Assembly (NCBI GenBank): GCA_026014875.1 | Contig: JAOZHO010000017.1 | Location: 11,611-75,610, forward strand | From: Candidatus Bathyarchaeota archaeon | GTDB taxonomy: Archaea; Thermoproteota; Bathyarchaeia; TCS64 | DNA length: 64,000 bases | Reading direction: 5' to 3' | In this document: one piece after another, positions 10,902-46,083 of the stretch | Position numbering within the stretch: position 1 is the stretch's first letter | How the letters are laid out: each line of letters opens with the position of its first letter | Program-made: the position numbers and the translations under genes | Notes under the pieces: model-generated | Seen by the model: the letters and a program-made list of their open reading frames with translations, nothing else | Told to the model about the DNA's origin: nothing | Database searches by the model: none

Positions 10902-12143
10902 CTATAATTTGCGGAGTTTGGGCACAATTAAAACCAGTATAACGAAGATGATTACCATAATTGCTCCATAGATACTCTGGGCAAGCGGCGCTCCAAGTGT
11001 TTCAGCTATGGCTCCCAGTGCCACGCTCCCCAGTACGCCAAATCCGATGCTTAGCTGCCATATGCCCATGGCACGGCCCCGCTGCTCTTCGGTAACGTTG
11101 AGTTGGAACAGGATGTGTTGCATGGCGTCGTGTCCCGCCGCTGTTATTCCAACTATGCCTATGAAGAATAGTGAGAGAGGATACGATGATGAGTTGGCGA
11201 ACAGAATCAGTGAAACACCGAATGCGAGGAAGAGGCCGAGTTGTATCCGTCCCTTGTACTCGTAGTCTCCGAGAGAGGCAAGAGTCAGTCCCGCTATTAG
11301 GCCGCCTACCGAGCGTACGGTGCTGAACATGCCGAGGCCGACGGCGCCTACGCCCAGGATGTCCCGGGCAAAGACGGGTAGGAGTGCTGAATAGGAGAAG
11401 CCGAACATCTCACAGGTGGCTGCCATCACCATCAAGGCGAGGATGACCCTGTTGTTCAGGACGATCTGTATTCCCTCAACAAGGTCGCTCCAGAGCGATT
11501 GCGTTTTAGTGATCGCTCTTTCTTCAATCCCCCGGATGTAAGCTGTTATTCCAATTGCCAGGATGTTAGCCGCGGTTATCACGAAGAAAGGCCACTCCAT
11601 ACCAAACAAATGGATTATAATTCCGGCGACGGCACCACCGATGATGCCGATGCCTCGCAATCCAACCGCGTTAAGAGAGATACCGCTCATGGCGCCCTCA
11701 CGGCCGACGATATCCACAATGAAAGCCTGGCGTGCGGGGCCTTCGAAGGCACGGATGGAACCCCAGACAAATGTGATCAGGAGGACATGCCAAAGTTGAA
11801 TCCAGCCTCGCAGGACCAGGTAACCCAATAGAAAACCACAGGCGGAATACAAGGCCAAGGCTACTATCTGTAACTTTTTCCGATCAACCCTGTCGGCTAC
11901 AGCTCCTGCCAACATTCCCAAGATTAGATTTGGTGCCGAGCGTGTTGCCCACACTAGGCCCAGGGATAAGGGGGAATCAGTTAGTTCCAAGACCAACCAT
12001 CCTGAAGACACCATCATCATGATGTTTCCAAGGGACACAGTAATCGTAGTCAAAAAAAAGAGACCAAAATTCCGAGACTTGAAAGGTTGAAAAATCCGTA
12101 TATTGGCGATGCCAGAAAATAGATCAGTCACTTTATTTGCCAC
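10902..12143 (-). CDS. MFS transporter
   Basis: 413 aa with 12 predicted hydrophobic segments and a MFS-like loop 2-3 motif (G..ADRVDRKK). Confidence 0.85.
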   Translation of the reverse strand: MANKVTDLFSGIANIRIFQPFKSRNFGLFFLTTITVSLGNIMMMVSSGWLVLELTDSPLSLGLVWATRSAPNLILGMLAGAVADRVDRKKLQIVALALYSACGFLLGYLVLRGWIQLWHVLLITFVWGSIRAFEGPARQAFIVDIVGREGAMSGISLNAVGLRGIGIIGGAVAGIIIHLFGMEWPFFVITAANILAIGITAYIRGIEERAITKTQSLWSDLVEGIQIVLNNRVILALMVMAATCEMFGFSYSALLPVFARDILGVGAVGLGMFSTVRSVGGLIAGLTLASLGDYEYKGRIQLGLFLAFGVSLILFANSSSYPLSLFFIGIVGITAAGHDAMQHILFQLNVTEEQRGRAMGIWQLSIGFGVLGSVALGAIAETLGAPLAQSIYGAIMVIIFVILVLIVPKLRKL

Positions 12144-27239: not shown

Positions 27240-27659
27240 ATGACCCGTCTCACAAGAGATGAGATCTCGAAAGCCCTCGCCGAGATGAACGAGGCCTTCA
27301 ACGCCCACGACCTCGATGCGGTCTTGGAAAAACTCCACGAAGATATTCTGTTCGAGAACTGGACCGGGGGCAGTGTGAAGGGGATCGAGTCGCTGAAAAC
27401 GGCGTGGTCCCCCTGGTTCAAGGATCACGGAGGCTTCCGGTTTACCCACGAGGACGTCCTCATCGACGAGGAGGAGCAGAAGGCCGTCACTCGCTGGTGT
27501 CTGGACTGGCCGTCCTCGGAGGCGGGCTATGCGGGGCTGCATGAGACTAGGCGGGGCGTCGACGTGATGCGGTTCGAGGACGGCAAGGTCATCGAGAAGC
27601 TCACCTACTCCCAGACCACCCTCGAGATCGATGGTCGCAGTGTGAGGCTCCGAGCCTGA
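27240..27659 (+). CDS. SnoaL/NTF2-like (ketosteroid-isomerase-like) protein
   Basis: 139 aa with the DLDAVLEKLHEDILFENW pattern of the SnoaL_2 fold. Confidence 0.6.
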   Translation: MTRLTRDEISKALAEMNEAFNAHDLDAVLEKLHEDILFENWTGGSVKGIESLKTAWSPWFKDHGGFRFTHEDVLIDEEEQKAVTRWCLDWPSSEAGYAGLHETRRGVDVMRFEDGKVIEKLTYSQTTLEIDGRSVRLRA

Positions 27660-27945
27660 AACTCCCCTTCCCCGGAATGCCAAAACGACAGTTGGATACG
27701 TCATAGGCATCAGGTCTGATAGCCCAGATATTGCGGCGGCTCACCGATCACTGGGAGGATGATTCGGGCAATATGAAGAACCTGGGCATAAGGGAACTCG
27801 GTGTGCATTTGGTTACCTTGGCCTTCGGCTTCGTCATCCTCGCCGGCTGCTTCTGTTTCTTTTAGGATAATCTTTTTAACCTCAGCCACGGCCCTTTAGC
27901 TCCATAACCTGAGCGAAGTGACCGGACCGATGTTAGCTGAATGAG

Positions 27946-29181
27946 ATGACCGAACGTCCATCGAGTAGGTGGGCCTCCATCAAGGGTAACATCGGAGTCA
28001 TGCTTCTCAGCTCAGGACTGTGGAACCTCGCAGGCGCTATGACGTGGCCCTTCTACTCGCTATATGTCCTAGAACTCGGCGGAATGCACGCCGACATAGG
28101 CTTCATATCGGCCCTGGGAGCCGTGACCAGGATCGTCCCCACCCTCTTCGGGGGATACCTCGCGGACGCCCTGGGCAGGAAGAAGATACTCTACTCCATG
28201 AGCTTCCTCCTCGCCGCGAACGAGCTCCTGCTCGCCTTCGCCCCCGACTACAGGTGGCTCTACCTCATCGTCGTGGTGGAGGCCCTGGCGGGGGGGCTCA
28301 GGGACCCCTCGTTCATGTCCCTCATCGCCGACTCCACCAACCCCGACAACAGGGCCTTCTCCCTGTCCCTCTTCCAGGTGGTCCCGCCCCTCTTTGGGCT
28401 CCTCTCCCCCTTCGCCATGGGGGTGCTCATGGACTCCCGGGGGGTCGTGGTGGCGATGAGGTATACCTACACATTCACGTTTCTGATGGCGACCGTGGCC
28501 TCTTTCCTGAGGTACAGGTACATCGAGGAGACCCTCACCAACGGGAAGGGGGTCCAGAAAGATCCGAGAGTAGCCGTGAAGGAGATCCTCCGGGGCTTCA
28601 AGGAGACCCTCCGAGTCCTCCCCTCCAAGCTCTGGCTCTTCCTCTCGATAGACTTCATCTTCACATTCGCCTGGGGCCTCACGGAGCCCTACTTCGTGAC
28701 CTACGCGACGGAGGCGGCCATGCTCACCGGGGCCCAATGGGGGCTCGTAATCATGGGCGCCACGCTCATCCGCACGACGGTGAAGCCCCCCGCGGCACTG
28801 GCCTCGGACAGGTACGGCAGGATCAAGTTCATCCTGGTCTGCATGTTCCTCTGGCCCGCAGGGTTCCTCCTCTTCGTCAACTCAGCGGGATTCCAAGCCC
28901 TCCTGATCGCCAGGCTACTCATCGCATTCGCGGGGAGCCTCGGGGACCCCTCCTGGGAGGCCCTCTTCGTCGACTATCAGCCCAAGGAGCACCGGGGCCG
29001 TTTCAGCGCCATCGCGAGCGTCTCCTGGAGCCTCATCTGGGGCGCCGGGAACGTGGTGGGGGGCCTCATCTACCAGAACGTCTCCAAGAGGATGATCTTC
29101 GACCTCAGCGCGGGGCTCCTGATAATCGGCGCCGTCCTCGCCCTCATCAAGATCAGGGAGCCCGATCACCGGGAGACCTAG
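27946..29181 (+). CDS. MFS transporter
   Basis: 411 aa with 12 hydrophobic segments and a GGYLADALGRKK motif. Confidence 0.8.
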   Translation: MTERPSSRWASIKGNIGVMLLSSGLWNLAGAMTWPFYSLYVLELGGMHADIGFISALGAVTRIVPTLFGGYLADALGRKKILYSMSFLLAANELLLAFAPDYRWLYLIVVVEALAGGLRDPSFMSLIADSTNPDNRAFSLSLFQVVPPLFGLLSPFAMGVLMDSRGVVVAMRYTYTFTFLMATVASFLRYRYIEETLTNGKGVQKDPRVAVKEILRGFKETLRVLPSKLWLFLSIDFIFTFAWGLTEPYFVTYATEAAMLTGAQWGLVIMGATLIRTTVKPPAALASDRYGRIKFILVCMFLWPAGFLLFVNSAGFQALLIARLLIAFAGSLGDPSWEALFVDYQPKEHRGRFSAIASVSWSLIWGAGNVVGGLIYQNVSKRMIFDLSAGLLIIGAVLALIKIREPDHRET

Positions 29182-29229
29182 CCCCGAAGCTGCGCAAACC
29201 GTTTAAACCATGTCCCCTATTCACAGCCG

Positions 29230-30126
29230 ATGTCCGTCGAGGCTATAACAGACACCATCTCGATGATCGACTCCCCCTACCACGGACTCGGGGAGGTGCT
29301 CGAAACATACCTGATACAGGGACAGAAGTCAGCTGTAATCGACCCGGGCCCCGCACCCCTCGTCCCGGGGGTCATCGAGACCCTCGAAGCGACCGGGGTG
29401 ACCCATCTCGACTACATCCTACTGACCCACATCCACATCGACCACGCCGGCGGCTGCTGGAAGATGCTGGAGACGTACCCCGACGCCACGATCCACTGCC
29501 ACCCCCGAGGAGCGGAGCACGTCATCGACCCCTCGAGACTCCTCGCCGCCGCCGGGAAAATCTTCGGCGACGCCCTCAGCGAGTTCGGCGAGGTACGAGG
29601 CGTGCCAGCGGAGAGGGTCGCAGAGTCCACGGACGGTGAGACCCTGAACCTGGGAGGGGTCAGCCTCGAGACGATCTGGACCCCCGGCCACTCAAGCCAC
29701 AGCCAGAGCTACTTCGAGCCGGACTCCGGGGTGGTCTTCGCGGGGGACGCCGCCGGCTACTACCCCGGGAACAAGGGGGTCCTCGTCCCCGATGCCCCCC
29801 CTCCCCACAACCCCGCCCAGGCCGCGGATAGCCTCCTCAAACTGATGAGGTACGAACCGAAGACCATCGCCTACAGCCATTTCGGGTACTACGATGAAGC
29901 GACGACTCGGCTTGAACGCTTCCTCGATCAGACGAGGCTTTGGGATCGACTCGCCCAGGACGGGGTCGAAGCGGGCCTCTCGTTGAACGATATATTCGAT
30001 CTGCTCGTCGAGGAGGATCCCGAAGCCCGGGAGCTCGCCGGAATCGACGAGGAGGGCAAGAGGGCGGTCTACTTCAATCTGAAGAGCTTCGTCGGATATG
30101 CGAAATGGCGGAGAAAGTCTCCGTAA
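29230..30126 (+). CDS. MBL-fold metallo-hydrolase
   Basis: LLTHIHIDHAGG is an HxHxDH motif, with downstream His/Asp ligands. Confidence 0.85.
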   Translation: MSVEAITDTISMIDSPYHGLGEVLETYLIQGQKSAVIDPGPAPLVPGVIETLEATGVTHLDYILLTHIHIDHAGGCWKMLETYPDATIHCHPRGAEHVIDPSRLLAAAGKIFGDALSEFGEVRGVPAERVAESTDGETLNLGGVSLETIWTPGHSSHSQSYFEPDSGVVFAGDAAGYYPGNKGVLVPDAPPPHNPAQAADSLLKLMRYEPKTIAYSHFGYYDEATTRLERFLDQTRLWDRLAQDGVEAGLSLNDIFDLLVEEDPEARELAGIDEEGKRAVYFNLKSFVGYAKWRRKSP

Positions 30127-30253
30127 GGGGATGACCTAGTTCCCTTTTTTTGAGCAGTATTCAGATCACCCACTCGCTTGAAAAAGAGAAAAAAACATCA
30201 GAAAACTCGATTCGACTATAAACTCCTGGCCGCCTCTCGGCGTCTGAGCTTAT

Positions 30254-30433
30254 CTAGAACCTTCTTGGCGGCCTGTGCTTAGCAAAGCACTCACGGCAGT
30301 AAACCGGCCTGCCCTCTGTCGGCTTGAAGGGGACCTCGGCCTCCTTCCCGCAATCAGAGCAGATGATCTTGGTCATCTCACGCGGGCCACGGTCGTATCC
30401 ACCGCGCCTATCTCTATAACCCAATACTTTCAC
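30254..30433 (-). CDS. small CxxC-x17-CxxC zinc-ribbon protein, copy A (59 aa, GTG start; core MTKIICSDCGKEAEVPFKPTEGRPVYCRECFAKHRPPRRF)
   Basis: Hand translation of the minus strand. Paralog of 30752..30934 and not in the ORF track because it is 59 aa. Confidence 0.6.
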   Translation of the reverse strand: MKVLGYRDRRGGYDRGPREMTKIICSDCGKEAEVPFKPTEGRPVYCRECFAKHRPPRRF

Positions 30434-30751
30434 TCCTATTCTGTGTGTATGCTCAGAACGCCTCTCGGTATTCGCCGCACACTGGGCACGCAGGGGTATT
30501 TCTCCCTTTTAAACCATTTTACGCAAAGCCAACCATAAACAACCTAAACCAGAGTCGTGCGCGATGAGGGCGGTTTTATTCAGTCTGAAGAGCTTCGTCG
30601 GATATGCGAAATGGTTGAGAAAGTCTCAGTGACCAGATTACCTGTTTCGGGTCATCCTTCAGAACCCTCACTAGCTTGGAAAAAAAGAAAAAACAATAGA
30701 AAACTCGATTCGACTATAAACTCCTGGCCGCCTCTCGGCGTCTGAGCTTAT

Positions 30752-30934
30752 CTAGAACCTTCTTGGCGGCCTGTGCTTAGCAAAGCACTCACGGCAGTAA
30801 ACCGGCCGGCCCTCTGTCGGCTTGAAGGGAACCTCGTCCTCCTTCCCGCAATCAGAGCACGTGATCTTTGTCATCTCACGCGGGCCGCGGTCGTATCCAC
30901 CGCGCCTGTTGTCTCTATAACCCAATACTTTCAC
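30752..30934 (-). CDS. small CxxC-x17-CxxC zinc-ribbon protein, copy B (60 aa)
   Basis: MKVLGYRDNRRGGYDRGPREMTKITCSDCGKEDEVPFKPTEGRPVYCRECFAKHRPPRRF. Differences from copy A are mostly synonymous, plus one in-frame 3-nt indel. Confidence 0.65.
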   Translation of the reverse strand: MKVLGYRDNRRGGYDRGPREMTKITCSDCGKEDEVPFKPTEGRPVYCRECFAKHRPPRRF

Positions 30935-31100
30935 TCCTATTCTGTGTGTATGCTCAGAACGCCTCGCGGTATTCTCCGCACACTGGGCACGCAGGCGCGG
31001 TTCTCCCTTTTAAACCCTTTTACGCCGACCCAACTATAAACAGGCAAATCCAAAAGAACCTCCTAGAATAAATAACTGGAGAGGACCCGGGGGATATACG

Positions 31101-31766
31101 ATGGAAACAGTCATACTGATACGCCACGGGGAGGCGGAGCACATGGTGAGCGACCTGACAGGGGGCTGGTCCCAGACCCCCCTCACCGAGAAAGGCAGGG
31201 CCCAGGTGCGCGCCCTGGCGACGAGGCTCGAGAAGGATCTCGAGGGGGTCGATTATGCTTTCTACTGCAGCGACTTAAAGAGGGCACACCAGACCGCCGA
31301 TATCATCGCCGAGGCGGTGGGGCGTGAGCCGATCCCCTCCCGGGAGCTCAGGGAGTTCAACAACGGCGTCGCCGCCGGCAGGGCCAAGGAGGAGGTCGCC
31401 CACCTGTACCGCCCCCCATCGGAGTCAATAATGGACTGGCAGCCCTACCCCGAGGCGGAGACGTGGCGGAGGTTCTACCGCAGGATCACGGCGTTCATGG
31501 ACGAGGTCCATGCTGAGGAGGATCGTCCCACCCTCATAGTCTCCCACGGGGGCACCATCGTCAACCTCGTCGCCTGGTGGATCAGGCTCGAGGAGGCCGG
31601 CCTCTCATACACCACGTTCCATACGTCCCCTGCGAGCCTCAGCGTCCTCAATGTCACCCCCCTCAACGAGAGGGCCGTGGAGAGGCTCAACGACACCGCG
31701 CACCTGCATAAACTGGGGCAGGTTCCCCGCCTCCCTCTAGAGGCGAAACCTCAGAGCGCTCCTTGA
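31101..31766 (+). CDS. histidine phosphatase family protein (phosphoglycerate-mutase-like)
   Basis: ILIRHGEAEH is the RHG catalytic motif, with a later His in SHGGTI. Confidence 0.8.
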   Translation: METVILIRHGEAEHMVSDLTGGWSQTPLTEKGRAQVRALATRLEKDLEGVDYAFYCSDLKRAHQTADIIAEAVGREPIPSRELREFNNGVAAGRAKEEVAHLYRPPSESIMDWQPYPEAETWRRFYRRITAFMDEVHAEEDRPTLIVSHGGTIVNLVAWWIRLEEAGLSYTTFHTSPASLSVLNVTPLNERAVERLNDTAHLHKLGQVPRLPLEAKPQSAP

Positions 31767-31800: not shown

Positions 31801-32685
31801 TCAACGGGTCGTGTCGAGGCTGACGCTGCCGACCCCCAACCTGATGTCAAGTCTCAGGCTGGGCTCCTGGGATTTCTCGTAGGCGTCGTTGGTGTAGACC
31901 CCTCCCAAGGGGAAACCCTTGCTCCGGGTTCGGAGGAAGCCCCCGTGGGCGCTCACGCTGGCGAGCCCCTCTACCGAGACCCTGGTGGGCACGGTCTCGT
32001 CCACGGTGATCCTGAAGCTCCCGACCCCTCCCCCGATGTCCACCCTTGCGTCGCGGTCGAGGCTCTTCCCGGTGAAGCCGAGCCTCATCTCCCCGACCCC
32101 GCCCTCCACCTTCATCCTGTCGAAGTTGGCGTTGAGGAGGCCGCTGGCGTCGAGGTCCCCGGCCCCCGCGGAGAGCTTTAGAAGCCTGAGGGCTTCGGGG
32201 TTGGGGGAATCGAAGCTCAGGGAGTTGTTGCTCACCCCCGCCTGGAGTGTGAGGTCCGTGAGGGGGAGGCCCCCGAGGTCCCAGTCCCCCATGCTCACTC
32301 CGCAATTTACGTCCATGGAGAAGGGCTTCCCGTCCCCCAGCTTGATGTCCCAGCGGTTCACGGGGTTCGACCTGACTCGGACAACGAACCTCTACTCCTG
32401 GACGATCCTCACCCTGTCCCCCTGGACACGGACCACCGGGGCGAGCTCGGAGTCGTCATACTCCACCGTCCCCTCCACGAACCTTCCGGATGCGCCCCCG
32501 GAGACGTTGATCCGCCCCGCGGAGCGGACCACGATCTCGAGCCTCGCCGAGTCCCCCTCCGGGTAGGGGATGTCCAGGGTCTCCACCTTGATCGCCTGGA
32601 GGGTCTCTCCCACGGGCGTGCCGCACGCTGAGCAGAATAAGTCTTCGACTCCCAGCTCTTTCCCACATTTGATGCAAAAGGGCAT
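31801..32685 (-). pseudogene. zinc-ribbon plus DUF4097-like (beta-strand repeat, putative adhesin/LiaG-like) protein interrupted by a single in-frame TAG at 32392-32394
   Basis: ORFs 32392..32685 and 31801..32361 are in the same frame, separated only by TAG plus 10 sense codons. Combined length (about 293 aa) and domain order (N-terminal CxxC..CxxC ribbon, then repeated ...V.V.GG.G...V strands) match a single DUF4097-type protein. Confidence 0.5.
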
Positions 32686-45997: not shown

Positions 45998-46083
45998 TGG
46001 CGCCGCGGAAGGGATTCGAACCCTTGAGGCACAAAGGCCACTGGTTTTCGAGACCAGCACGATAACCACTCTGTCACCACGGC
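45998..46083 (-). tRNA. tRNA-Ser (anticodon CGA), long variable arm, CCA encoded
   Basis: Minus-strand reading GCCGTGG...CTGGT-CTCGAAA-ACCAG...variable arm...AGGGTTCGAATCCCTT-CCGCGGC-G-CCA. The acceptor pairs 7/7 with one G·U. The 86-nt length fits class II tRNA. Confidence 0.8.

Follow-up and report, generated by a model that had tools for sequence, protein, structure and literature searches.

A tandem duplication of a cassette encoding a CxxC-x17-CxxC zinc-binding micro-protein, putatively linked to RNA, in a Bathyarchaeota genome

The closest described relatives of the gene discussed here are eight small proteins of Methanosarcina mazei, which were detected with high confidence by mass spectrometry in a 2025 study and seven of which were absent from UniProt (PMC12704099). 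Two of them were purified by a procedure that included a heparin step, and their zinc binding was shown with inductively coupled plasma mass spectrometry, whereas a role in transcription was suggested by analogy with the CxxC-x17-CxxC ribbons of the TFIIB type (PMC12704099). Literature searches on the CxxC-x17-CxxC family yielded this study as the one relevant paper, and no functional study. In this work we analyze a locus with two members of this family in a stretch of 64,000 nucleotides (the window, whose numbering is used throughout) from Candidatus Bathyarchaeota archaeon, corresponding to positions 11,611 to 75,610 of contig JAOZHO010000017.1 in assembly GCA_026014875.1. With moderate confidence, we interpret this locus as a real and moderately old tandem duplication of a cassette of ~500 bp, which encodes a zinc-binding and probably RNA-binding micro-protein of 56 or 57 amino acids, and of which both copies have been retained.

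An initial annotation, made from the sequence alone, had claimed that a tiny zinc-binding gene of the CxxC...CxxC type is tandemly duplicated here, and the repeats and alignments now bear this out. A pairwise repeat finder returned three direct repeats at the site, of 278 nt (90% identity), 141 nt (89%) and 83 nt (83%), with start-to-start spacings of 498, 501 and 506 nt, and a gapped alignment of the two head-to-tail units gave a mean identity of 91%. The first unit starts at 30060, inside the 3' end of an MBL-fold hydrolase gene, and the homology between the units fades near 31045:

30060 to 30565: tandem unit A, 506 bp (repeat families D1-D3, alignments A1 and A2), with the real 3' end of the MBL gene, a spacer, copy A of the small gene, its leader and promoter, and the junction filler.
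30566 to 31045 (end approximate): tandem unit B, ~480 bp (repeat finder and alignments), with a pseudo-copy of the MBL 3' end, a degenerate spacer, copy B of the small gene, and its leader and promoter.
30542 to 30565: junction filler between the units (AACCAGAGTCGTGCGCGAT...), ~24 nt, with no homology to the single-copy locus in the alignment.
30566 to 30632, plus strand: duplicated 3'-end fragment of the MBL gene, 67 nt, translating as ..RAVLFSLKSFVGYAKWLRKSQ*, without the upstream gene body.

The two units of about 509 bp and about 90% identity that had been described are therefore real and 91% identical, but their period is 498-506 bp and a filler of ~24 nt without homology lies at their junction. 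The carried-over end of the MBL gene was also correctly seen, since its 67-nt copy opens unit B and still closes with an in-frame stop. Tandem Repeats Finder reported no repeat in the region because its longest period is 500. The head-to-tail copies, the junction at 30542-30566 and the presence of a single unit in a collinear sister metagenome-assembled genome (MAG) of Candidatus Bathyarchaeota, hereafter L001, all speak of tandem duplication. As a genomic event this duplication is an ordinary one, and its product is a tandem pair of paralogs from a family without an assigned function.

The idea that a single locus was written twice by the assembler deserves attention, as assemblers do struggle with this region: the closest single-gene relatives lie on contigs of 508-639 nt, one of them with an exact terminal overlap of 141 nt, and L001 shows only one unit. 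However, the two copies differ at ~9% of their positions and by indels, so that an assembler could not have made them, unit B has a degenerate spacer of its own and a specific filler, and GenBank keeps both genes on one contig of 88 kb. Moreover, the same junction is crossed by contigs from three other, unrelated assemblies. A contig from an NCBI metagenome (L009, JAZHCH013127397) carries the identical filler followed by the MBL-tail fragment, a TARA scaffold (L090) aligns contiguously over 30054-30608, and a contig of ERZ26661914 (L093) does so over 30228-30790 and encodes a complete gene and, ~509 nt away on the same strand, the final 12 codons of another. An assembly artefact, to which we give next to no probability, is thus effectively refuted, and the duplication is genuine and present in other natural populations. 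As separate observations, the 141-nt terminal overlap, found in L009:1-639, indicates that this contig is looped with a period of 498 nt, a hint that in that population the successive units are more alike or more than two in number, and many of the closest relatives occur on contigs 500-650 nt long, as would be the case with a repeat that breaks assemblies.

The duplication had also been regarded as recent, a view that does not hold. The synonymous divergence (dS) between copies A and B is 0.17, close to the values of the flanking genes when the window is compared with L001 (0.18 for the MBL gene, 0.21 for a histidine phosphatase and 0.29 for an MFS gene), and the junction is found in three other assemblies as well. 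L001 is collinear with the window over 27842-31766 at ~90% identity, and its MBL protein is 86% identical. From these distances, the duplication is moderately old, about the age of a species-level split, although this timing is approximate because the single copy of L001 could result from assembly collapse or secondary loss. From the promoter to the 3' untranslated region (UTR), copies A and B agree against L001 at 12 sites, while A alone differs at 11 and B alone at 6, a nearly star-like pattern; segment-wise distances among both window copies, L001, L008 and L009 were also roughly star-like and resolved no paralog tree. More distant relatives (L010, L013, L014 and L094-L098) have the ancestral layout, in which a single small gene and the histidine phosphatase gene point away from each other, while the small gene converges with an M19 dipeptidase gene. 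Only in the lineage of the window and L001 does a SnoaL-MFS-MBL block (27240-30126) stand between the dipeptidase and the small gene, which would indicate a three-gene insertion, or a loss elsewhere. As the duplicated segment includes part of the MBL gene, the duplication must be younger than this arrangement.

The gene itself needs a new model. The minus-strand open reading frames (ORFs) reported initially, 30254-30433 (59 amino acids) and 30752-30934 (60 amino acids), both GTG-initiated, are indeed present, and their N-terminal extension, which had been taken as conserved, is so across the family (GYR-RRGGYDRGPREM). The start, however, is a TTG codon three codons downstream of the GTG (30422-30424 in copy A and 30923-30925 in copy B), which aligns with the ATG of relatives and sits 6 nt past an AGGAGTG core, whereas the GTG falls within the conserved Shine-Dalgarno-like AGGAGTGAAAG. 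In the alignment, relatives begin as MGYR(D/E)RR..GPREM (at greater length, MGYR(D/E)RRGGYDRGPREM.K..C.DCG). The coding sequences are as follows:

30254 to 30424, minus strand: copy A, TTG start, 56 amino acids plus stop, (M)GYRDRRGGYDRGPREMTKIICSDCGKEAEVPFKPTEGRPVYCRECFAKHRPPRRF; PF23477 E 3.7e-21, TIGR04272 E 1.7e-21.
30752 to 30925, minus strand: copy B, TTG start, 57 amino acids plus stop; PF23477 E 2.1e-20.

The protein of copy B differs from that of copy A by an Asn insertion and the changes I21T and A29D, and the full 57 amino acids have an exact match in another NCBI assembly. Contrary to the notion that such genes are missed by annotation, GenBank holds both of them, and a model naming the family is available at NCBI and IMG. 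What GenBank offers are shortened "hypothetical proteins" of 40 amino acids, MCW3988882.1 (NWE88_02265; 30254-30376) for copy A and MCW3988883.1 (NWE88_02270; 30752-30874) for copy B, which begin at an internal ATG and lose the conserved Arg/Gly/Tyr arm of 16/17 residues. In a 43-sequence alignment this internal Met is a conserved residue of the domain, and therefore not the start; the invariant positions are P14, R15, M17, the four cysteines, V31-P32-F33 and V41. Several database relatives are likewise called at 40 amino acids, and some are mislabelled 'DNA-directed RNA polymerase'. Two antisense ORFs on the plus strand (30275-30538 and 30773-31039) were set aside because it is the minus-strand frame that has the family match and the codon-level constraint. 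A corrected gene model, with a TTG or ATG start, thus recovers the Arg/Gly/Tyr arm that current annotation drops.

Regarding selection, the coding sequences of the two copies differ by eight substitutions and one in-frame 3-nt indel, and the Nei-Gojobori count (5.5 synonymous and 2.5 non-synonymous differences) reproduces the tally first reported. The resulting dN/dS ratio (omega), 0.12 with a Fisher p of about 0.002, does not exceed that of the flanking genes against L001 (0.17-0.42), while comparisons of the copies with relatives give values mostly of 0.1-0.3 (range 0.08-0.60). Both amino-acid differences fall at the most variable positions of the family. Purifying selection on both copies, as proposed from the start, is therefore upheld for the coding sequence (0.12, p about 0.002) but is not assignable to each copy, because there are only eight differences. 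In the meantime, the spacer of unit B, which in unit A holds the terminator hairpin of the MBL gene (30125-30146), has diverged by ~35% (24 of 69 positions), and it can therefore be argued that the similarity kept elsewhere has been maintained.

Copies A and B are identical over a stretch of 110 nt that takes in the 3' half of the coding sequence as well as the 3' UTR (30269-30378 in alignment A2), versus 19 differences in the 232 nt upstream (p 0.0007), while L001 differs at four sites within the same 110 nt. This identity suggests a gene-conversion tract, and it would fit with the proposal that one copy is redundant and decaying, its apparent constraint being explained by a short time and by gene conversion. 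The low number of substitutions, which allows no test per copy, the sufficiency of one copy in relatives such as L001 and L094-L098, and the slightly weaker leader hairpin of copy A (-14.6 versus -16.9 kcal/mol) are also in line with such a neutral duplicate. Against it, a dS of 0.17 represents a substantial time, over which neither copy has acquired a frameshift or a stop or has lost its promoter, Shine-Dalgarno motif or hairpin, whereas the unconstrained spacer of unit B has drifted as described. The indel is in frame, both amino-acid changes lie at family-variable positions, and three further lineages have kept intact the gene copies that lie upstream of the junction. Having several copies is also usual in this family, with eight paralogs in Methanosarcina mazei and, among 83 other loci, 5 where another copy lies within 4 kb, a habit that is consistent with a dosage effect. 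For these reasons we consider neutral decay an unlikely explanation. A dosage benefit, which had been suggested from the amplification, is plausible.

The copies could also have diverged toward different targets, beyond any added dosage. Each has its own changes, D29A in the turn of the first knuckle for copy A, and I21T with the Asn insertion in the RG arm for copy B, and both A-like (KEAE) and B-like (DNRRGG, KITC, KEDE) proteins recur elsewhere (P0001/P0005, L008/L009). These features, however, are mixed in relatives (I and D in L001, T and A in L012 and L015), the changed positions are the most variable of the family alignment, and the regulatory regions of the two copies are nearly alike, all of which makes subfunctionalisation quite improbable. 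Under the retention of both copies that we favor, the locus offers a natural example of a micro-protein gene held in two copies over species-level time, with a bearing on the evolution of gene dosage.

The family of the small protein is clear. Copies A and B match PF23477 (zf_Tbcl_2) with 75 and 72.5 bits (cutoff 27), covering positions 1-37 of the 37 in the model, and TIGR04272 (CxxC-x17-CxxC) with 75.6 and 71.4 bits (cutoff 36). In the 56-residue protein the four invariant cysteines are arranged as C22-x2-C25, 17 residues and C43-x2-C46. The homologous small ORFs expected in related genomes were present in abundance: a word-indexed search found 870 homologs, many of them named "CxxC-x17-CxxC domain-containing protein", in Bathyarchaeia, Thermoplasmata, Thorarchaeota, Aenigmarchaeota and candidate-phyla bacteria, and an exhaustive profile search at E<=1e-3 returned 7005 representative clusters at 50% identity. 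Pfam describes PF23477 as a "probable treble clef zinc finger", and AlphaFold2, run with the family alignment, predicts with moderate confidence (core pLDDT, the predicted local distance difference test, of 79-86) that the first CxxC sits on a beta hairpin at 18-21/28-31 and that a helix at 44-50 begins at the second. According to this model the protein would fold as a treble clef, made of a knuckle plus a helix, and not as the two-hairpin zinc ribbon that had been supposed; its N-terminal arm is rich in Arg/Gly/Tyr and its tail is basic. Structure comparisons found no solved structure related by sequence or fold, the FmdB/CxxC_CxxC_SSSS zinc ribbon (TIGR02605) scored 13.7 bits, below its cutoff of 31.3, and a match to a CPSF4 knuckle (E 0.0025) was not significant at the domain level. 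Zinc binding by the four cysteines of copies A and B is likely by analogy with the two Methanosarcina mazei homologs.

A first indication of the activity of this protein comes from helicases. Two loci (L038:3127-4386 and L039:3014-4273) encode a protein of 419 amino acids with DEAD and Helicase_C domains followed by a C-terminal zf_Tbcl_2 (E 6e-17 in L038), and in both of them a small, free-standing paralog immediately precedes the helicase gene on the same strand. PF23477 was present in all 120 of the 120 best homologs of the L038 helicase (P0121-P0240; 66-94% identity; labelled DeaD, Bathyarchaeota), and DEAD-box genes adjoin the small gene in L018 and L020. Clustering of the neighbors in 84 loci revealed no widely conserved partner gene, and a 'helicase' cluster of 14 loci was discarded as a single-linkage artefact seeded by the domain-bearing helicases. 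In many members of the family the domain is present in 2-5 copies, which in the examined sequences are separated by RGG/RG-rich linkers; P0273, P0274 and P0276, for instance, have 3-5 tandem copies and linkers of the GGDRGGHRGG type. Both RGG boxes and the C-terminal extensions of helicases bind RNA. The helicase fusion, the RGG linkers, the Arg/Gly/Tyr arm and the basic tail therefore make RNA binding, by analogy, the most likely activity of the small protein.

A role in transcription, either as a factor associated with the RNA polymerase or as a DNA-binding protein, is the alternative. It is the one suggested in the Methanosarcina mazei study, through the analogy with TFIIB-type ribbons (PMC12704099), databases give some members the label 'DNA-directed RNA polymerase', and the binding to heparin would fit DNA as well. 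But RpoP/Rpb12 (PF03604) reaches just 13.7 bits with the small proteins, below the Pfam cutoff of 24, and it is a different family, so that those labels look like mis-annotation; a profile search gave no TFIIB match for the small proteins. Furthermore, a DEAD-box RNA helicase (120 of 120) was the one conserved fusion partner to emerge, and linkers of the RGG type are typical of RNA binders. We thus judge a function in transcription improbable, and keep RNA binding as the preferred activity.

What has been duplicated is not only a coding sequence but a whole expression cassette. In each unit, a TTTAAAA box is followed by 24 nt, a 36-nt stem-loop, a linker of ~20 nt, a Shine-Dalgarno-like motif, the start codon, the gene, a two-tier hairpin and T tracts:

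30507 to 30513, minus strand: TATA-like box TTTAAAA of copy A, 24 nt upstream of the stem-loop, putative promoter.
31008 to 31014, minus strand: TATA-like box TTTAAAA of copy B, as read from the sequence.
30447 to 30482, minus strand: 5'-leader stem-loop of copy A (fold, covariance model R1 with 91 bits, pair counts).
30948 to 30983, minus strand: 5'-leader stem-loop of copy B (fold, covariance model R1 with 96 bits, pair counts).
30431 to 30437, minus strand: Shine-Dalgarno-like AGGAGTG of copy A, part of the nearly invariant AGGAGTGAAAG.
30932 to 30938, minus strand: Shine-Dalgarno-like AGGAGTG of copy B, in nearly invariant columns of a 37-sequence leader alignment.
30218 to 30253, minus strand: 3' two-tier hairpin of copy A (AUAAGCUC...CGCC-GAGA-GGCG...GAGUUUAU), directly past the stop codon (fold).
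30716 to 30751, minus strand: 3' two-tier hairpin of copy B, identical to that of copy A (fold).
30181 to 30205, minus strand: oligo-T tracts of copy A, likely an archaeal terminator.
30680 to 30704, minus strand: oligo-T tracts of copy B, likely a terminator.

The TTTAAAA box keeps an equal spacing in related loci; a scan for sigma-70 promoters gave no match, with a model that is not applicable to archaea. Relatives keep the 3' hairpin with a different sequence. The leader hairpin (minimum free energy of -14.6 kcal/mol in copy A and -16.9 in copy B) consists, in copy A, of an outer stem GUGUGC/GCAUAC, a purine-rich 2x2 internal loop, an inner stem and a GNRA loop, and this architecture recurs 5' of the orthologs in many Bathyarchaeia loci with differing stem sequences (e.g., L023:1722-1781, L049:134-199 and L014:3942-4003), the internal loop being purine-rich and often GA/GA (tandem G-A). 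A covariance model (R1), built from nine close sequences and searched over 443 kb of fetched loci, gave 36 matches, two in the window and 34 in further loci, each ending exactly at the start codon of the small gene. In the resulting alignment, which was fitted to the model, 93% of the cells are paired, versus 32-54% in slid controls, and 11 of the 13 pairs show compensatory double changes, a level reached by none of 500 shuffles. Independent folds of single sequences give the same hairpin, and the frequent G-U pairs are better explained by a sense-strand RNA structure than by a DNA palindrome. RNAalifold predicted no structure from a plain MAFFT alignment of 37 leaders, because the stems are misaligned in it, and Rfam 15 gave no match at E<=1 in 29900-31200, which covers both the 5' leader and the 3' hairpin. 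With the distance from TATA box to start site that is usual in archaea, the stem-loop would sit at the very 5' terminus of the mRNA. Altogether, the leader stem-loop is a candidate for a new cis-acting RNA motif outside Rfam. In a second clade of small homologs (MFGSNNFGG...; the L054-L089 group, e.g., L066:3893-4165) a different conserved hairpin, ACAGU-N5-ACUGU, occurs ~20 nt before the start codon. Structured leaders may be general for the CxxC-x17-CxxC gene family.

The surroundings of the cassette include the following genes and elements:

29230 to 30126, plus strand: MBL-fold hydrolase gene, intact (PF00753 E 1e-25; GenBank MCW3988881.1).
30125 to 30153: terminator-like hairpin of the MBL gene plus T7 (terminator scan).
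31101 to 31766, plus strand: histidine phosphatase gene, divergent from copy B (PF00300 E 3e-41).

The histidine phosphatase is a conserved neighbor of the small gene in relatives, as seen from the synteny with L001, L014 and L094-L098. Beyond it, two minus-strand ORFs in different frames, 32392-32685 (97 amino acids, Zn_Ribbon_1 plus a weak toast-rack N-terminal match) and 31801-32361 (186 amino acids, no Pfam match), could represent two genes or a single one interrupted by a frameshift. The only match in the window by Rfam (at gathering scores) or ARAGORN is a tRNA-Ser (CGA) at 45998-46083, minus strand.

Taken together, these data allow us to propose a mechanism, in which the small protein would bind RNA as the free-standing counterpart of the C-terminal tail of the Bathyarchaeal DeaD-type helicases, acting either as an RNA chaperone or as an accessory of the helicase or of ribonucleoproteins. 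The terminal hairpins would stabilise the mRNA, enable the protein to control its own message, or both. A second copy would be kept as it lifts the output of an abundant protein, and could also permit a mild divergence at two variable surface positions, whereas the 3' half of the gene would be homogenised between copies through gene conversion. A bolder version, which we regard as doubtful, is that the protein binds its own 5'-terminal stem-loop, in an undescribed autoregulatory circuit of micro-protein and leader that would be widespread in Bathyarchaeia and where copy number would set the level of an abundant RNA chaperone.

Several points weigh against this interpretation as a whole. Eight substitutions are too few to show selection for each copy singly, and the identical 3' half could reflect constraint instead of gene conversion. 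A dosage benefit cannot be told apart from neutral retention with conversion. Assembly collapse or secondary loss could account for the single copy of L001, on which the dating leans, and the covariation of the leader was counted on an alignment fitted to the model. RNA binding, in turn, is deduced from a domain fusion, composition and analogy, and the one function suggested in print for the family lies in transcription (PMC12704099). In any case, the CxxC-x17-CxxC micro-proteins form a very large family, for which this locus offers three handles: the gene model, the helicase fusion and the leader hairpin. The fusion to a DEAD-box helicase points experiments to RNA and not to transcription, and the leader stem-loop is a testable binding site or stability element.

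When compared with the known systems, the window proteins are similar in kind to A00184, A01980 and the six other paralogs of Methanosarcina mazei, which belong to the same domain family, have a similar size and a single CxxC-x17-CxxC module, show a basic C-terminal tail ending in R-R-Y/F, and occur as several paralogs per genome that were mostly overlooked or poorly annotated (PMC12704099). They differ in that they come from another phylum, have an N-terminal arm of the type MAFNDRN..., and have been shown to be expressed at the protein level and, for two of them, to bind zinc (PMC12704099). The C(P)XCG micro-proteins of Haloferax volcanii (HVO_2753 and HVO_0758) are also archaeal, one-domain, zinc-binding proteins of ~60 amino acids, and the first knuckle of our proteins (CSDCG) fits CxxCG, but the second one is CRECF, and the predicted fold and the flanking arms are different; no family relationship was detectable with the 'small CPxCG-related zinc finger protein' of PDB chain 8q5b_A (E 0.47). 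Subunit P/Rpb12 of the RNA polymerase (PF03604) shares the tiny size and four zinc-binding cysteines, and its name has been borrowed by some database labels.

Among eukaryotic proteins, the likeness to chaperones with zinc knuckles and RGG motifs such as CNBP is one of mode only, with knuckles joined by RGG-rich linkers as in P0273 and P0276, since there is no homology and their ligands are CCHC instead of CCCC. At the level of the message, the leaders of ribosomal proteins, the cspA 5' UTR and the 5' hairpin of ompA resemble our case in combining a conserved structure at the 5' end of the mRNA with a small, probably abundant nucleic-acid-binding protein, although here the promoter context is archaeal, Rfam has no match at E<=1 and the regulation is hypothetical. 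Finally, the tail of the DeaD-type helicases (L038:3127-4386; P0121-P0240) is fused to a helicase core of 380 amino acids and has no GYR-RRGG...GPREM arm, and no DEAD-box helicase with a zf_Tbcl_2 tail is encoded within the window itself, but this tail belongs to the same Pfam domain, comes from the same phylum and has a core, VPFKPTEGRPVYCR(D/E)CF, that is nearly identical to that of the small protein.

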